NCBI RefSeq assembly: GCF_055900595.2 | Contig: NZ_CM148325.1 | Strand: one strand, 5' to 3' | Length of the DNA: 64,000 bases | Shown here: positions 2,460-11,310 of the stretch, one piece after another | How the letters are laid out: each line of letters begins with the position of its first letter | How positions within the stretch are numbered: the first letter of the stretch is position 1 | Program-made: the position numbers and the translations under genes | Notes under the pieces: generated by a model | What the model was told of the DNA's origin: nothing | The model's database searches: none | What the model saw: the letters and a program-made list of their open reading frames with translations, nothing else

Positions 2460-2469
2460 GTCTGAGAAC

Positions 2470-2547
2470 AGAGATACGGCTAATAACCGTATCTCTTGAC
2501 AGAGTGAGTATATGCACATAAATTAATCATACGGTTGATAGCCGTAT
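2470..2547 (+). promoter_or_regulatory. putative promoter/operator of the toxin-antitoxin operon
   Basis: Perfect 10-bp inverted repeat agagatacgg/ccgtatctct (2470..2496) overlaps TTGACA (2496..2501); a second atacgg/ccgtat palindrome at 2529..2547 shares the same core. Confidence 0.5.
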
Positions 2548-2600
2548 TATGCATGAGATCGACTCCCTACGATTTCATTCAGTTAATCAAAGAGGTCATA

Positions 2601-2912
2601 ATGCCTGGAAAAACAGTCGCTCTACCCGATATCGATAAAACGCTGAAAAATGCGCGGGTTGAACTCAAAACCAGTCCCGACGCCAAAAACAAACTTCGTG
2701 AAGCTGCGCAAGCCGTTGGGGTAGATTTAAGCGCTTTTATTTTGAGCGCAGCTATGGAACGCGCCGAAAGTGTGCTTGATAACCAACGTCGCCGTGAGCT
2801 TTCGAATCAAAGCTGGGAACTGATGAACCAACTCATCGCTGAACCTGCTCAACCGACGCTCGCCCTCAAGGCGTTAATGAAAAGGAAAAACAGCGATGGT
2901 CGACAAGCATGA
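2601..2912 (+). CDS. DUF1778-type antitoxin (TacA/AtaR/ItaR-like) of a GNAT toxin-antitoxin pair
   Basis: 103 aa from ATG 2601 with AGAGG Shine-Dalgarno upstream; the ORF-track start at 2535 is a non-ATG extension; immediately precedes and overlaps a GNAT ORF. Confidence 0.7.
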   Translation: MPGKTVALPDIDKTLKNARVELKTSPDAKNKLREAAQAVGVDLSAFILSAAMERAESVLDNQRRRELSNQSWELMNQLIAEPAQPTLALKALMKRKNSDGRQA

Positions 2913-3438
2913 AGAGATTACTCTGCCCATAGTCCTCTCCTGTAATTATCAGTCTGATATTACTTATCCTGGGCAAAAACAGTTTGATTGCGGTAACCCT
3001 GTTATCGATAAATTTGTACGCGCATCGCTAAAGAAAAGTGTGCGTAATAGCGACTGTGCTGCTAAAGCACTTATTGACAGACAAAGTGGTGAACTGATTG
3101 GCATCTGTACTTTTACGGCATATTCGCTGGAAAAACAACGCGTTTCTGGCGTCCTTCAGGGTTCACAACCTTCAGAGATTGGTGTTGTCAGATTAGTCAT
3201 GTTAGGGGTAGCGCGGAAATATCAAAAGCGGGGCTTTGGTCAGGACCTACTATGTGATTTTTTTGAACATGTAAAAATAATTCACCGGGCATTACCAATT
3301 AAAGGGGTTTATCTTGATGCTGACCCTGCCGCCATTAACTTTTATACTCGTCTCGGCTTTGTTCAGCTTTCAGCGAGGCCCAATGTTTTCGGTGCTGTAC
3401 CGATGTTTTTAGCGATTCAGCATATTCTCGCGGCTTAG
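2896..3438 (+). CDS. GNAT-family acetyltransferase toxin (TacT/AtaT/ItaT-like, predicted aminoacyl-tRNA acetylating)
   Basis: 180 aa; overlaps the upstream antitoxin by 17 nt; FDCG motif near N-terminus and Q-x-x-G-x-G acetyl-CoA motif (YQKRGFGQ). Confidence 0.7.
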   Translation: MVDKHEEITLPIVLSCNYQSDITYPGQKQFDCGNPVIDKFVRASLKKSVRNSDCAAKALIDRQSGELIGICTFTAYSLEKQRVSGVLQGSQPSEIGVVRLVMLGVARKYQKRGFGQDLLCDFFEHVKIIHRALPIKGVYLDADPAAINFYTRLGFVQLSARPNVFGAVPMFLAIQHILAA

Positions 3439-3682
3439 ATTATTATCGCCTCCGGCCATGGCAAGTTTTGCCTCAGCCGGAGACTGAGCAGCGTTACCAC
3501 TTTTGTTCAATTGCCCCCGCTTTCATCAGGTCCACATCCTTGCCTTTAATGGTTGCCGTTGCGGCAACGATCGTGGTCCTTATAGCTGCACAAGATTTTC
3601 GTTCAAATTCCGGTTTATAAAGAATAAGCAACGAATTACTGGTAAATGAATCAAGCCGGTAATCTGTAAAGTTAATATCCAG

Positions 3683-4429
3683 TCAGTTTAAGCCGAAAGG
3701 TGCAAAGCCGACCGTTTGAATAGTTTCCTTACCTGACGGACTCTTGATGTTGTACGTAACACGAAGATTGGCCACTTCGCCTAATTTATTGGTTTTGGCA
3801 AAGAGGCTATCCATGCAGGAAAAACCTTTATCTAAAAAATTATCCCGCATTCCAGAACGGGTAATCGTGATCACCGGTAACGTATCGTCAACCGTTTTTC
3901 TGTCAATCATATCTTTTCGACAGGCGGCCATAAAGTCTTCCGGACCAGCATAAATGTGAACACCCTTATCAAGATATTCTTTCGCTTTACTACAATCCAC
4001 CTCGACATACTGACCATTGGCGTACATCATGCCCAACCTGGACCATGCTAAATTCACACCGCGTTGCGTAGCCTGATTAAATAACGTATACGCTTTGGCG
4101 TAATCCACTCGCACCTGTTCACCTTCGTAGTAGATATTCCCCAGCGCTAACGGAGCTTCTTCATCACCTTGTTTAGCGGCTAACTCGAACCATTTAATGG
4201 CTTCCTGAACGTTGGGTTTGGTATCGTAGCGGGGCTGATAATATTCCCAGCCTAACAGGCTTTGCGCGTCGACATCCCCCGACTCAGCCATTTTATACAG
4301 TGTCCTTATCACATCGGGGGCAGGCTTTTCACTGTATATGCTGTCATACAATTCATGCGCTTTCTCGCTTGCCAGTGAACCTTGTGAGGCAATTAATAAA
4401 ATAGCCAATAAACTCTTTTTATTTAACAT
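3683..4429 (-). CDS. secreted Sel1/TPR-like repeat protein with an uncharacterised C-terminal domain
   Basis: 248 aa; N-terminal signal peptide MLNKKSLLAILLIASQGSLA; Sel1-like repeats (AAKQGDEEAPLALGNIYYEG, ATQRGVNLAWSRLGMMYANG); AT-rich. Confidence 0.65.
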   Translation of the reverse strand: MLNKKSLLAILLIASQGSLASEKAHELYDSIYSEKPAPDVIRTLYKMAESGDVDAQSLLGWEYYQPRYDTKPNVQEAIKWFELAAKQGDEEAPLALGNIYYEGEQVRVDYAKAYTLFNQATQRGVNLAWSRLGMMYANGQYVEVDCSKAKEYLDKGVHIYAGPEDFMAACRKDMIDRKTVDDTLPVITITRSGMRDNFLDKGFSCMDSLFAKTNKLGEVANLRVTYNIKSPSGKETIQTVGFAPFGLN

Positions 4430-4845
4430 AAATAACCTTTATGCATCCATCACTATATTTTTCAATATACCTAACCACCAAACATCCACTTCATGAATAA
4501 ATACACAGCCATAACAACCTCAGGTAATAAGTAAACATTTAAGCTGAAGCAGAATAACCAGCACCTCCAACACCTCTATTTATTGCGATAAAATAACACC
4601 ATCCTTTAATAAAAAATAACACACTCATCAACAAATCCGAAAATAATATCATTCGTGGCAGGATAAAATCAGGCGAGCTTTTCATTTGTTATATTTAACG
4701 CACAAAGTATTAATGGCAAGAATACGAGAGAAGCGCATGCCTGACGTAAAAATCACGCTCTTATGTAATATTTACTCATTAACACTCTGTTTACCCAACA
4801 TGCGCTCCGCACTACACTATGTGGGCAATTTTTTAAGAGGTGGTA

Positions 4846-6210
4846 ATGAACGATTATAAAATGACGCCAGGTGAGCGGCGCGCGACCTGGGGTTTAGGGA
4901 CCGTATTTTCATTGCGCATGCTGGGCATGTTTATGGTACTGCCGGTTCTAACTACGTACGGTATGGCACTGCAAGGTGCCAGTGAAGCATTAATCGGTAT
5001 TGCCATTGGTATTTATGGCCTGACTCAGGCCGTTTTTCAGATTCCGTTTGGCCTGCTTTCCGACCGCATTGGTCGCAAACCATTAATTGTCGGCGGGCTG
5101 GCGGTGTTTGCCGCCGGTAGCGTTATCGCTGCGCTTTCCGACTCTATCTGGGGAATTATTCTGGGCCGGGCGTTACAAGGTTCTGGAGCGATTGCCGCTG
5201 CCGTTATGGCGCTACTTTCTGATCTCACGCGCGAACAAAACCGCACCAAAGCGATGGCGTTTATCGGCGTGAGTTTTGGCATTACCTTCGCCATTGCGAT
5301 GGTACTTGGCCCTATCATCACTCACAAACTTGGACTGCACGCGCTATTCTGGATGATCGCTATTCTGGCAACGACCGGTATTGCGTTGACCATTTGGGTT
5401 GTGCCCAACAGCAGCACGCACGTACTTAATCGTGAGTCCGGAATGGTGAAAGGCAGTTTCAGCAAAGTGCTGGCAGAACCGCGACTGCTGAAACTCAACT
5501 TCGGCATTATGTGTCTGCACATGCTGCTGATGTCGACGTTTGTTGCCCTGCCCGGACAGTTGGCTGATGCGGGGTTCCCGGCGGCTGAGCACTGGAAGGT
5601 CTATCTGGCGACGATGTTAATCGCCTTTGGCTCGGTTGTGCCTTTCATTATCTACGCGGAAGTTAAGCGCAAAATGAAGCAAGTCTTTGTCTTCTGCGTC
5701 GGGCTGATCGTGGTTGCGGAAATTGTGTTGTGGAACGCACAAACGCAGTTCTGGCAACTGGTGGTCGGCGTGCAGCTTTTCTTTGTGGCGTTTAATTTGA
5801 TGGAAGCCCTCCTCCCCTCGCTTGTCAGTAAAGAGTCGCCAGCCGGTTACAAAGGTACGGCGATGGGCGTTTACTCCACCAGCCAGTTTCTTGGCGTGGC
5901 CATTGGCGGTTCGCTGGGTGGCTGGATTGACGGCATGTTTGACGGTCAGGGCGTATTTCTCGCTGGCGCAATGCTGGCCGCTGTGTGGCTGGCTGTCGCC
6001 AGTACCATGAAAGAACCGCCGTATGTCAGCAGTTTGCGCATTGAAATCCCATCGGACATTGCCGCAAACGAGACGTTAAAAGTGCGTTTGATGGAAACTG
6101 CGGGTGTCAAAGAAGTGTTGATTGCAGAAGAAGAACATTCAGCTTATGTGAAAATCGACAGCAAAGTGACGAATCGCTTTGAGGTTGAACAGGCAATTCG
6201 TCAGGCATAA
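4846..6210 (+). CDS. yajR: MFS transporter YajR
   Basis: 454 aa from ATG 4846 (MNDYKMTPGERRATWGLG); multi-TM MFS protein. Confidence 0.92.
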   Translation: MNDYKMTPGERRATWGLGTVFSLRMLGMFMVLPVLTTYGMALQGASEALIGIAIGIYGLTQAVFQIPFGLLSDRIGRKPLIVGGLAVFAAGSVIAALSDSIWGIILGRALQGSGAIAAAVMALLSDLTREQNRTKAMAFIGVSFGITFAIAMVLGPIITHKLGLHALFWMIAILATTGIALTIWVVPNSSTHVLNRESGMVKGSFSKVLAEPRLLKLNFGIMCLHMLLMSTFVALPGQLADAGFPAAEHWKVYLATMLIAFGSVVPFIIYAEVKRKMKQVFVFCVGLIVVAEIVLWNAQTQFWQLVVGVQLFFVAFNLMEALLPSLVSKESPAGYKGTAMGVYSTSQFLGVAIGGSLGGWIDGMFDGQGVFLAGAMLAAVWLAVASTMKEPPYVSSLRIEIPSDIAANETLKVRLMETAGVKEVLIAEEEHSAYVKIDSKVTNRFEVEQAIRQA

Positions 6211-6222
6211 AAAACGAGGCGA

Positions 6223-6312
6223 ATTGCCTGTTGCGCTACGCATATCAGGCCTACAAAGTTCCTGAGTGACAAATCTTTGTAGGCCGAATCAGGCGTTCAT
6301 GCCGCATCTGAC
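6223..6312. repeat. REP/BIME palindromic units
   Basis: Two inverted REP-like units (gcctgttgcgctacgcatatcaggcctac ... gtaggccgaatcaggcgttcatgccgcatctgac) downstream of yajR. Confidence 0.75.
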
Positions 6313-6337
6313 ATGAACAAAGCGCAGGTTGTCGCGA

Positions 6338-6829
6338 TTAATCGCGGAAGTTTTTGAACTGGAACGGCTGACCCAGATCGCCACCACGTACCATCGCCAT
6401 GACAGCCTGCAAATCATCACGAGATTTGCCCGTCACACGGATCTCATCGCCCTGAATTTGCGCCTGCACTTTCAGTTTGCTGTCTTTGATCATCTTGACG
6501 ATTTTCTTCTGGGTCGCGCTTTCAATGCCCTGTTTCAGTTTCGCTTCCACAAACCAGGTTTTACCGCTATGAACGATATTTTCCGGTACATCCAGCGAAC
6601 TGCCTTCAATGCCGCGCTTCAGCAGCTTGGCACGCAGAATATCCAGCAACTGATTGACCTGGAAGTCGGACTCGCTCAACACTTTGATGGTTTTGCTGGC
6701 GTCGTTCAGCTCAAATGAGGCTTCAACGTTACGGAAGTCAAAACGGGACTCCACTTCGCGGCTCGCGTTATCGACCGCGTTTCGTGCTTCCTGAAGATCA
6801 ACTTCAGAGACAATATCGAAAGATGGCAT
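6338..6829 (-). CDS. yajQ: nucleotide-binding protein YajQ (UPF0234)
   Basis: 163 aa from [20 protein letters not shown]; the ORF-track 56-aa N-terminal extension was not used. Confidence 0.92.
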
Positions 6830-6908
6830 CTTTTCCTCTCCCTTCATTTTTGATGCGAAGCATAATACCTGCAAAGTTAAATAACCGACAGTCCTGCACC
6901 AGGACGTA

Positions 6909-6952
6909 TCCCTTAATTGTGCATAGTCGCAACAGCATGCACAATTAAGGGA
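6909..6952. promoter_or_regulatory. 16-bp perfect inverted repeat in the divergent yajQ-panE intergenic region
   Basis: tcccttaattgtgcat (6909..6924) and atgcacaattaaggga (6937..6952) with a 12-nt spacer. Confidence 0.5.
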
Positions 6953-6996
6953 TAGCCTTATTGAACACCCGGAGTGGTTGCGGGTGAGGAGGAACA

Positions 6997-8461
<1,465 letters not shown>

Positions 8462-8476
8462 TGTCGGATGCGGCAA

Positions 8477-8502
8477 ACGTCGCATCTGACCAGATGCGAC
8501 GT
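8477..8502. terminator. REP-like perfect hairpin between convergent yajL and thiI
   Basis: acgtcgcatctg-ac-cagatgcgacgt, 12-nt arms. Confidence 0.6.
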
Positions 8503-8514
8503 AAAAACCACAAA

Positions 8515-9963
8515 TTACGGACGATACACCTTCACATTGTTAAAGCCCTGCTCGCGTAGATAGAGCGCCTGCAGGCGGCTCATCACCCCGCGCTCACACC
8601 ACAACAGCCAGGTTTTGTTCTGGTCGAGATCGCCAAATTTGGTGCTCAGTTTATAGAACGGCAGAGAAACCACGTCGATACCTTCAACTCTCAGCGGCTT
8701 ATCTTCTTGTTCATCAACAGAACGGATATCGAGGATCACGTCGTTCGGGCCGAAGCCGTTGACGGTTTCCACTTCCACCACTTCCTGCTCGGTCTGCTGA
8801 GCGATTTCGCGGATATCAACGTTATTCGCTTCCTCAACCACTTTATCGAGAATGCTGAAGTCGAACTTCTCTTCTTCCGCTTCAATCTTCGATTTAACCG
8901 CTTTCACCGTCGGGCTTTTGGAGATAACACCGCAGTATTCCGGCATGGTGCGGGCAAAATCTTCGGTGCCAATCTGGCGAGCCAGGTTGATGATGTGCTC
9001 TTTGTCGTAAGAGATCAGCGGACGCAGGATCAGCGTATCGGAGACGTTATCAATCAGGCGCAGGTTGGTTAGCGTCTGGCTGGACACCTGTCCCAGCGCT
9101 TCGCCGGTGACGAGCGCCTGTACGCCGTAACGTTCAGCCACTTTAGACGCGGCACGCACCATCATACGTTTGAGGATTACGCCCATCTGACCGTCGTCGA
9201 TTTTCTCGAGAATTTCACCGACGACCGGCTCAAAGTTAATGGCGACAAAACGCACGCGGTGGGAGCTACCAAAACGGTTCCACAGATAATGCGCCACCTG
9301 ACGAACACCAATTTCATGCGCCGCGCCGCCGAGATTAAAGAAGCAGTAATGCACGCGGCAGCCGCGACGCATTAACATATAACTGGAAACACCGGAGTCG
9401 AAACCACCGGAAATAAGCGACAGTACATCTTCCTGGGTGCCGATTGGGAAACCGCCAATGCCTTCGTAGCGGCCTTTGATCAGCAGGAGACGATCGTCTT
9501 CAACTTCCAGATGGACAGTCACATCCGGATTGGTCAGCTTCACGCGCGCGGATTCAATATGCTGATTTAAACCGCCGCCGACGTAACGTTCCACATCAAT
9601 CGAGCTAAACTCATGCTTACCACGGCGCTTCACGCGTACGCAGAAGGTTTTACCTTCCAGCTGCTCGCGATACTGAACCAACGCTTTCTCGAAAATATCG
9701 TGCATGTCGGTAAACGGCACGTCTTCGACTTCGAGAATATGGTGGATACCCGGAATACGGGTCAGGGCGTCGCGAATAGCCAGACGCTGGTTTTCATCTT
9801 TTGCGCGAACTTCGATGTTATCCCAGTGGCGGACGACAGCGAGCGTCTCATCATAGTGCTTTAAAACGTTACGAATGTTCCCGGTAAGGATTTTTATAAA
9901 GCGCAAGCGCACAGATTGGCTTTTGATGGTGATTTCCGGGAACAATTTAATGATAAACTTCAT
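8515..9963 (-). CDS. thiI: tRNA 4-thiouridine synthase / thiamine biosynthesis protein ThiI
   Basis: 482 aa; THUMP + PP-loop (SGGFDSGV) + C-terminal rhodanese. Confidence 0.95.
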
Positions 9964-10168
9964 GGCGGCAATGGTTCGTTGGCAAGTCTTAAGCGACTTG
10001 TATAGGGAAAAATACAGCAGCCCACACCTGCGGCTGCATCCAGGCGCGGAAGTATACCACTAACATCGCTTTGCTGCGCACATCACCTTACCATTGCGCG
10101 TTATTTGCTATTTGCCCTGAGTCCGTTACCATGACGGGGCGAAAAATATTGAGAGTCAGACATTCATT

Positions 10169-10411
10169 ATGCCGAAGAAAAATGAGGCGCCCGCCAGCTT
10201 TGAAAAGGCGCTGAGCGAGCTGGAACAGATTGTAACCCGTCTGGAAAGTGGCGACCTGCCGCTGGAAGAGGCGCTGAACGAGTTCGAACGTGGCGTGCAG
10301 CTGGCACGTCAGGGGCAGGCCAAATTACAACAAGCCGAACAGCGCGTACAAATTCTGCTGTCTGACAATGAAGACGCCTCTTTAACTCCTTTTACACCGG
10401 ACAATGAGTAA
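10169..10411 (+). CDS. xseB: exodeoxyribonuclease VII small subunit
   Basis: 80 aa; stop overlaps ispA start. Confidence 0.95.
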
Positions 10412-11310
10412 TGGACTTTCCGCAGCAACTCGAAGCCTGCGTTAAGCAGGCCAACCAGGCGCTGAGCCGTTTTATTGCCCCACTGCCCTTTCAGAACACT
10501 CCCGTGGTCGAAACCATGCAGTATGGCGCATTATTAGGTGGTAAGCGCCTGCGACCGTTCCTGGTTTATGCCACCGGCCATATGTTCGGCGTTAGCACAA
10601 ACACGCTGGACGCACCCGCTGCCGCCGTGGAGTGTATCCACGCGTATTCATTAATTCATGATGATTTACCGGCAATGGATGATGACGATCTGCGTCGCGG
10701 TTTGCCGACCTGCCATGTGAAGTTTGGCGAAGCAAACGCGATTCTCGCTGGCGACGCTTTACAAACGCTGGCGTTCTCGATTTTAAGTGATGCCGATATG
10801 CCGGAAGTGTCGGATCGCGACAGAATTTCGATGATTTCTGAACTGGCGAGCGCCAGCGGTATTGGCGGAATGTGCGGTGGTCAGGCATTAGATTTAGATG
10901 CGGAAGGCAAACTCGTACCTCTGGACGCACTCGAGCGTATTCATCGCCATAAAACCGGCGCATTAATTCGCGCCGCCGTTCGTCTTGGTGCATTAAGCGC
11001 CGGAGATAAAGGACGTCGTGCTCTGCCAATTCTCGACAAATACGCAGAGAGCATCGGCCTTGCCTTCCAGGTTCAGGATGACATCCTGGATGTGGTGGGA
11101 GATACTGCAACGTTGGGTAAACGCCAGGGTGCCGACCAGCAACTTGGTAAAAGTACCTACCCTGCACTTCTGGGTCTTGAGCAAGCCCGGAAGAAAGCCC
11201 AGGATCTGATCGACGATGCCCGCCAGTCGCTAAAACAACTGGCTGAACAGTCACTCGATACCTCGGCACTGGAAGCGCTAGCGGACTACATCATCCAGCG
11301 TAATAAATAA
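10411..11310 (+). CDS. ispA: farnesyl diphosphate synthase
   Basis: 299 aa; DDxxD motifs (LIHDDLPAMDDDD, FQVQDDILD). Confidence 0.95.
   Translation: MDFPQQLEACVKQANQALSRFIAPLPFQNTPVVETMQYGALLGGKRLRPFLVYATGHMFGVSTNTLDAPAAAVECIHAYSLIHDDLPAMDDDDLRRGLPTCHVKFGEANAILAGDALQTLAFSILSDADMPEVSDRDRISMISELASASGIGGMCGGQALDLDAEGKLVPLDALERIHRHKTGALIRAAVRLGALSAGDKGRRALPILDKYAESIGLAFQVQDDILDVVGDTATLGKRQGADQQLGKSTYPALLGLEQARKKAQDLIDDARQSLKQLAEQSLDTSALEALADYIIQRNK

Follow-up and report, generated by a model that had tools for sequence, protein, structure and literature searches.

A nonsense-truncated accessory gene of Escherichia coli for a predicted exported Sel1-repeat protein with an IrmA-like C-terminal domain

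EsiB (c5321; PDB 4BWR; PF08238) and interleukin receptor mimic protein A, IrmA (c1275 of uropathogenic Escherichia coli (UPEC) CFT073; PF18673; PDB 5EK5), are the closest proteins of solved structure to the two halves of the Sel1-repeat protein analyzed here, whose gene lies between cyoE and yajR on a 64,000-nucleotide stretch of contig NZ_CM148325.1 (assembly GCF_055900595.2), hereafter the window. EsiB consists of a signal peptide and a Sel1 alpha-solenoid of ∼490 aa (its solved chain has 467 residues), with cysteines in the repeat region. It binds secretory IgA (PMC3735183). IrmA is secreted and FNIII-like (fibronectin type III) in fold, with an atypical Cys21–Cys80 disulfide and a C-terminal strand-swapped dimer, and has been reported to bind the interleukins IL-2, IL-4, and IL-10 (PMC4807369). 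Another Sel1-repeat protein, Sel1E from the vgrG4 locus of Klebsiella pneumoniae, is a documented type VI secretion system (T6SS) immunity protein, encoded in an array of five Sel1 genes, and has a C-terminal extension of ∼70 residues with no assignable domain (PMC7108748). The toxin–antitoxin (TA) pair ItaRT, which adjoins the gene in the window, was described from E. coli HS and BL21, with components of 11.4 and 19.8 kDa (PMC6125619; PMC7367177), and is autoregulated by its own complex (PMC6125619). To these descriptions the present analysis adds an IrmA-like fold for the C-terminal region of the Sel1 protein and the recognition of a small Sel1/IrmA-like family at the cyoE–yajR site.

An earlier note, made from the letters of this DNA, had read a complete protein of 248 aa. 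The open reading frame (ORF) list confirmed the 248-aa ORF on the minus strand (Table 1). Translation past its in-frame TGA revealed 62 further sense codons, followed by a TAA. The window has TGA as codon 249, where the closest intact allele has CGA (Arg) and the major allele CGG. The closest intact allele, that of strain 2013C-4282 (WP_000932788.1), differs from the window at 4 of 936 nt, and one of the four is the causal C>T change at nucleotide 745 of the gene (window base 3685; C745T; R249*). Intact E. coli orthologues are 311 aa long (WP_001490882.1, WP_077250576.1, and WP_000932788.1), and the 62 codons downstream of the stop are conserved. In NZ_CP098223.1, which is 100% identical, RefSeq/PGAP marks the same span as a pseudogene (‘tetratricopeptide repeat protein’, ‘internal stop’), and RefSeq treats the locus in the same way for a human isolate from Mali. 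The earlier reading of the 248-codon ORF as a complete protein does not hold: a nonsense change (R249*, CGA>TGA) cuts short a 311-codon accessory gene located in the cyoE–yajR gap. The Sel1 gene itself is real and not a chance ORF, since homologues exist in several genera and the ratio of nonsynonymous to synonymous substitution rates (dN/dS) is 0.23 between two E. coli alleles. itaT and the full-length Sel1 gene converge, and their stops enclose a strong hairpin (–29.4 kcal/mol, z –4.8, as good in none of 200 shuffles) that is likely to be a bidirectional terminator. It lies just past the 311-codon stop, and the transcription unit therefore appears to have been built for the long gene and not for the 248-codon ORF. 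A simple sigma-70 scan of the region upstream of the Sel1 gene start found no promoter-like site on the strand of the gene.

The distribution of the stop was followed through 5426 complete E. coli genomes. The Sel1 gene was present in 1369 of them and the entire islet that carries it in 1366; about one complete genome in four has an intact 311-aa orthologue. The allele class of the window is rare (18 of the 5426), and within it 10 genomes carry the stop and 8 lack it, with the 61 nt around the stop identical in the 10. In a larger protein collection, the exact 248-aa product was found on 197 contigs, a 4-residue variant of it on 35, and the intact form on 657, so that the truncated allele makes up about a quarter of the assemblies in its class. 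The two truncated haplotypes are identical in the 3′ half, including the stop, and their differences are confined to a cluster at nucleotides 133–343. Because both have the same 3′ half, a single origin of the stop followed by divergence or recombination is indicated. Sequencing error as the source of the TGA was ruled out, as many independent assemblies share it (the 10 complete genomes and ∼230 contigs).

Two deeply diverged allele classes of the Sel1 gene were found in E. coli, with ∼88% nucleotide and 84% amino acid identity between the window (3494–4429) and strain XJ5.2. Across this comparison, the gene showed a dN of 0.087 and a dS of 0.37 (omega 0.23), as against a dN of 0.002–0.013 and a dS of 0.04–0.2 in the comparison genes cyoE, itaR, itaT, and yajR (dS 0.04–0.10 for itaRT); the adjacent itaRT, cyoE, and yajR are 95–98% identical at the nucleotide level. 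The signal-peptide codons are the most diverged part of the Sel1 gene (dS about 1.1). By these rates, the Sel1 gene is constrained, yet fast-evolving and deeply diverged. The 90% cluster of the window's allele class also includes Escherichia sp. strains and an entry of E. coli M863, presumably a cryptic-clade strain; recombination into the locus from other Escherichia lineages is hinted at and is possible.

The domain organization of the intact protein was examined by profile searches and by an AlphaFold2 (AF2) model of the full-length protein built on an alignment of 16 homologues. The N-terminus, MLNKKSLLAILLIASQGSLA followed by SEKAH, opens with a basic n-region, continues into a hydrophobic core, and has small residues at positions –3 and –1. 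This n/h/c signal layout is retained in all homologues despite strong sequence divergence there, and the AF2 model is unstructured over residues 1–18, with a pLDDT below 50. Export by Sec is a well-founded prediction from this pattern, in agreement with the cleavable signal peptide proposed in the earlier note. The note had also seen at least two Sel1-like repeats; Pfam PF08238 identified three, at residues 54–89, 95–124, and 131–155 (best i-Evalue 4.2e-7), with no Pfam match beyond residue 158 of the 248-aa ORF. NCBIfam gave only sub-threshold Sel1-type matches. In the AF2 model, residues 40–178 form paired helices with a pLDDT mostly above 90, i.e., an alpha–alpha hairpin solenoid. EsiB is the closest solved relative of this half by sequence (E 1.7e-40), with 6OK3 and SEL1L also among the matches. 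The likeness to EsiB extends to the signal peptide and to cysteines in the repeat region; the solenoid of the family has about four hairpins in E. coli and more in paralogues of ∼490 aa, and, unlike EsiB, the family always ends in a beta-sandwich.

The earlier note had left a C-terminal region of about 80 aa unassigned. No Pfam or NCBIfam family was assigned to it here either; what had appeared as one region is, however, a linker helix and the first half of a domain of ∼125 aa. In the AF2 model of the intact protein (pLDDT 82.9, pTM 0.82; pLDDT 77.8 for the C-terminal 149 residues alone), this domain adopts an FNIII-like beta-sandwich fold of eight strands, of which the positions are given in Table 1. 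The model thus predicts with good confidence that the intact architecture consists of a signal peptide, a four-hairpin Sel1 solenoid, and an eight-strand beta-sandwich. Four cysteines, Cys146 and Cys170 in the solenoid and Cys205 and Cys280 in the C-terminal domain, are invariant across the family, and disulfides Cys146–Cys170 and Cys205–Cys280, the latter equivalent to that of IrmA, are likely to be formed by oxidation in the periplasm.

Table 1. Positions of the Sel1 gene, its parts, and the neighboring features in the window.
Feature	Coordinates	Strand	Basis or remark
248-codon ORF and TGA stop	3683..4429	-	ORF list; 5′ 80% of the ancestral gene
Ancestral frame, 311 codons and TAA	3494..4429	-	Translation past the stop (TAA at 3494-3496); RefSeq pseudogene; intact 311-aa orthologues
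Premature TGA, codon 249	3683..3685	-	Alignments to intact alleles
Codons 250-311, now untranslated	3497..3682	-	Once encoded strands 263-270, 284-294, 297-300, 307-310 and Cys280
Predicted Sec signal peptide, codons 1-20 (MLNKKSLLAILLIASQGSLA)	4370..4429	-	Sequence pattern kept in homologues
Sel1 alpha-solenoid, residues 21-178, about four helical hairpins	3896..4369	-	Pfam PF08238, AF2, PDB 4BWR
Retained N-terminal half of IrmA-like beta-sandwich, residues 183-248	3686..3883	-	Strands 187-196, 205-213, 219-229, 235-242; includes Cys205
Hairpin enclosed by the stop of itaT (3438) and that of the full-length Sel1 gene (3494), which converge	3448..3484		RNA fold
itaR, DUF1778/RHH antitoxin, 103 aa	2601..2912	+	Annotation; neighbor
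itaT, GNAT aminoacyl-tRNA acetyltransferase toxin, 180 aa	2896..3438	+	PDB 7BYY; neighbor
Accessory islet of 2.3 kb, flanked by the cyoE terminator and by the promoter region of yajR	about 2460..4766		blastn of the K-12 intergenic region, K-12 annotation

The structure nearest to the C-terminal sandwich among solved proteins was the secreted E. coli IrmA by two independent methods. A Foldseek search with the C-terminal 149-residue model, a check that the earlier note had proposed, returned two IrmA chains first (E 1.9e-5 and 5.1e-5), followed by the next match at 4e-3. Profile–profile comparison with hhalign (15 domain sequences against 15 IrmA sequences) gave an E of 0.005 and a score of 23.1, as compared with a mean of 12.6 (standard deviation 2.3) for column-shuffled profiles, 1 of 120 of which reached the observed score. 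The alignment superposes Cys205 on IrmA Cys21 and Cys280 on IrmA Cys80, i.e., the two invariant cysteines of the domain coincide with the unusual disulfide of IrmA, and it also matches the motifs LRVT..K..G, FG, and AT...NG. Both proteins have an FNIII/Ig-like (immunoglobulin-like) beta-sandwich and a signal peptide, and both are encoded by accessory genes of Enterobacterales. They differ in that the identity of IrmA to the C-terminal domain is just ∼17%, that the domain has an extra loop of ∼15–20 residues, and that IrmA is a stand-alone protein of ∼150 aa encoded on mobile islands next to agn43, whereas the domain is a C-terminal module on Sel1 repeats at a fixed chromosomal site. A search of PDB sequences with the C-terminal domain profile returned only a chance match (CalS10 at E 2). 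Hence, the C-terminal domain is IrmA-like in fold and probably homologous to IrmA, and it is not filed here as a member of PF18673.

It can be proposed, tentatively and with slightly less than an even chance, that the C-terminal module is a true, highly diverged IrmA homologue, that the Sel1 and IrmA-like combination constitutes an undescribed family of exported, disulfide-bonded binding proteins long settled in the cyoE–yajR gap of the Enterobacteriaceae examined, and that IrmA is a free-standing offshoot of it. If the structural link is true, the occurrence of the IrmA fold extends beyond one small UPEC vaccine antigen that stands alone. Exported Sel1 proteins of E. coli (including BL21 and Shiga toxin-producing E. 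coli (STEC) O26, O103, and O111), Salmonella, and plant-pathogenic Enterobacterales would carry it as a reusable module at the C-terminus, and the link would offer a testable handle on proteins labeled merely ‘tetratricopeptide repeat protein’. Fast evolution and frequent decay would then be as expected of proteins in host or interbacterial interactions. In the agn43/irmA island of CFT073, a 378-aa SEL1-like repeat protein followed by a 180-aa hypothetical protein is encoded at NC_004431.1 1219723–1221437, ∼10 kb upstream of irmA. The hypothetical protein beside the SEL1-like gene was considered as a split-off copy of the sandwich and was ruled out (hhalign E 0.2).

The intact protein would be exported by Sec and then oxidized by DsbA in the periplasm, and it would most likely serve as a non-enzymatic binding adaptor, periplasmic or secreted. 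In such an adaptor, a ligand, either protein or peptide, would sit in the groove of the Sel1 solenoid, and a second surface, for binding or dimerization, would come from the IrmA-like FNIII module. In the window, R249* would remove the last four of the eight strands along with Cys280; because of this loss, the sandwich would be unable to close and Cys205 would be left unpaired. Most likely, the R249* product is unstable, degraded, or non-functional, and the allele is a pseudogene or a strong hypomorph persisting in one lineage. As the Sel1 part is intact and the UGA-C context of the stop is comparatively leaky, the allele may be a hypomorph and not a null. Taken as a whole, the locus is likely to represent a truncated 311-codon accessory gene for an exported Sel1 and IrmA-like protein, the product of which is broken in this copy and would act as a binding adaptor when intact, with ItaRT being independent. 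The combination of Sel1 repeats with an IrmA-like sandwich is a new domain architecture, broken in this copy.

Several observations weigh against this interpretation. The stop codon is UGA followed by C. The UGA-C context is a leaky, weak terminator context in E. coli, and some full-length protein may be made. The truncated allele is common in its lineage, at about a quarter of the assemblies of the class, which fits a tolerated and useful Sel1-only product. No co-occurring partner gene points to a ligand. As regards the likeness to IrmA, the Pfam IrmA model PF18673 gave no match even at E<=10 in a scan of the 248-aa ORF, in which the domain is limited to its first half. The hhalign probability was just 6.9%, and homology with IrmA is plausible but unproven. 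The Cys205–Cys280 pairing is a prediction from the alignment.

Some of these points favor the alternative that the R249* allele keeps a function, either through a 248-aa exported protein of Sel1 repeats only or through full-length protein made by read-through of the UGA; it would then be a variant and not a pseudogene. The Sel1 region, residues 21–178, is untouched in the 248-aa product, and the allele persists on ∼232 contigs in two haplotypes; the weak terminator context noted above would also be in its favor. Against it, half a sandwich with an unpaired invariant cysteine would be a typical substrate for periplasmic proteolysis, the full C-terminal domain is kept by all complete members of the family in other genera, and other decayed fragments of the family exist, namely, a 122-aa remnant in Salmonella and short forms in Shigella. 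A functional truncated product is, therefore, regarded as unlikely, though it is the best placed of the alternatives, and loss of function by the nonsense change is preferred. A literature search by the locus tags ECD_00379, ECB_00379, and EcHS_A0502/3, by yajR/cyoE/Sel1, and by Sel1 with IrmA retrieved no paper on the gene.

The distribution of the family was determined by a hidden Markov model scan with the C-terminal domain profile against 1.84 billion representatives, in which the domain proved rare, with only 30 proteins retrieved at E<=1e-3. In most of the proteins above 260 aa, the domain is C-terminal, and a few of 130–170 aa may be stand-alone domains or fragments; among complete proteins, the domain is almost always fused behind Sel1 repeats. 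The AlphaFold Database (AFDB) added members from Salmonella (about 500 aa, ∼30% identity), E. fergusonii, Morganella, Proteus, Pectobacterium, and Achromobacter, and a scan of species-representative genomes added Pseudocitrobacter, Brenneria, Affinibrenneria, and Symbiopectobacterium. In GCA_006432735.1, which we take to be Salmonella enterica, the yajR–cyoE gap (5001–11031 of the extracted locus) holds three Sel1/IrmA-like paralogues of ∼490 aa and no TA module. The same gap contains an unrelated exported ORF of 326 aa with a signal peptide and no Pfam match, and an ORF of 122 aa (9161–9529), which is a decayed remnant of the short E. coli-type C-terminal domain. A single copy of 484 aa adjoins cyoE in another enterobacterium (L010), and two Pseudocitrobacter-like loci (L007 and L014) have a short and a long copy of the gene, whereas Escherichia has one short form. 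Shorter forms in the databases include a partial entry from Shigella sonnei and, in AFDB, short entries from Shigella. Since Salmonella, L010, and others hold copies there, the Sel1/IrmA-like family is, by these genome comparisons, an old tenant of the cyoE–yajR site, prone to duplication and decay. STM0438, a possible member of this locus, is included in one list of Salmonella virulence genes.

This distribution bears on two views of what the intact protein might bind. According to the first, it would be a host-directed factor that binds cytokines or immunoglobulin through its EsiB-like and IrmA-like modules, a view suggested by the ligands reported for EsiB (secretory IgA) and IrmA (the three interleukins), the solved proteins nearest to the halves of the protein. 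The Sel1 similarity is at the level of the repeat and is generic, however, and plant pathogens and an environmental genus have members of the domain family as well (Pectobacterium, Brenneria, Affinibrenneria, and Achromobacter). Moreover, the major E. coli allele is found in laboratory B strains (including BL21) and commensals as well as in STEC. A host-directed role is accordingly considered doubtful and less probable than a functional truncated product, and the general binding-adaptor role is preferred.

According to the second view, which is rated marginally lower still and is improbable, members of the family are orphan periplasmic immunity proteins against T6SS effectors, like Klebsiella Sel1E. 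The export signal, the tandem paralogues (three and a remnant in Salmonella, two in L007/L014), the fast divergence (dN exceeds that of the four neighboring genes about 7- to 40-fold), and the recurrent decay would all suit such a role, as would the existence of Sel1E. Sel1E likewise belongs to a tandem array of paralogous Sel1-repeat proteins, although the likeness is by description only. The gene of Sel1E adjoins that of its T6SS effector, whereas no vgrG, hcp, PAAR, or effector gene adjoins any member of the present family examined. Sel1-like T6SS immunity proteins of Pseudomonas, Tli5b, likewise occur in tandem paralogous arrays and are encoded next to their effector. The loci in E. coli, Salmonella, and related genomes are flanked by cyoE and yajR; that of Pectobacterium lies among a LysR regulator, a choloylglycine-hydrolase-like gene, and guaBA, and that of Affinibrenneria has unrelated neighbors. 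PADLOC found nothing meaningful for the Sel1 protein or ItaRT, the one match being to PtuA at an insignificant E of 0.0019. The binding adaptor of the cyoE–yajR site remains the preferred role for the intact protein.

The genomic surroundings of the gene agree in part with the earlier note. The small accessory islet described there is real: K-12 has about 25 nt in its place, and its G+C content is 0.35–0.48, as compared with 0.51–0.57 in the flanks. The Sel1 gene product is also not a widely conserved core periplasmic protein of known function. The orientation was misread: the gene and the TA pair converge tail-to-tail, and the divergent neighbor is yajR. The divergent spacer between the Sel1 gene and yajR (4430–4845; 416 nt, G+C about 0.35) is mostly islet. 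Only the last ∼80 nt before yajR are common to K-12, and the yajR upstream region therefore differs in islet carriers. The only Rfam match in the islet was below threshold, to STnc50, a Salmonella small RNA family (2425–2492 on the minus strand; 23.5 bits, gathering score 55, E 0.68). It overlaps the cyoE terminator hairpin and is probably merely that terminator.

The adjacent TA pair is ItaRT. ItaT matches PDB 7BYY over residues 1–180 (E 1.3e-115), and the 17-nt gene overlap and the gene sizes agree with the published description (PMC6125619). ItaRT is a neighbor and not a relative of the Sel1 gene, lying on the opposite strand with a separate evolutionary history. The earlier note had considered the pairing with a TA module unusual and had proposed comparative genomics for co-occurrence. 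This comparison separated the two outside E. coli. In Salmonella, L010, and Escherichia sp. MOD1-EC7003, Sel1/IrmA-like genes occupy the cyoE–yajR slot without ItaRT; in MOD1-EC7003, an ORF of 315 aa (L013, 4812–5759) replaces itaRT between cyoE and the Sel1 gene. On two enterobacterial metagenome contigs, L007 (6984–7544) and L008, itaR is intact and ItaT is cut to residues 11–89, leaving an orphan itaR beside two intact Sel1/IrmA-like genes. Conversely, an ItaRT homologue with 77% identity to ItaT stands alone on the Citrobacter freundii plasmid NZ_CP145667.1 (L033, 2706–3546), between baseplate and tail genes. The location of this homologue, among phage tail genes on a plasmid, shows that the TA pair moves independently of the Sel1 gene.

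That the Sel1 protein and ItaRT would form one functional three-gene module, by regulation or cooperation, is very improbable: in E. coli the three genes nearly always occur jointly and a Pseudocitrobacter metagenome-assembled genome has them in identical order, but the co-occurrence in E. coli is explained by one islet inherited at one site, the two occur apart in the genomes above (including L007, with its decayed itaT, and the Citrobacter plasmid), the genes are convergent with a strong hairpin between them, itaRT is regulated by its own complex, and the Sel1 gene has diverged far more between E. coli lineages than itaRT. The Sel1–ItaRT pairing looks incidental, and ItaRT looks like an independent neighbor. 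For the window this means that the Sel1 copy is broken, that its TA neighbor is the known ItaRT, and that the pairing needs no special explanation. The Citrobacter plasmid that carries the ItaRT homologue resembles a 97-kb phage-plasmid.

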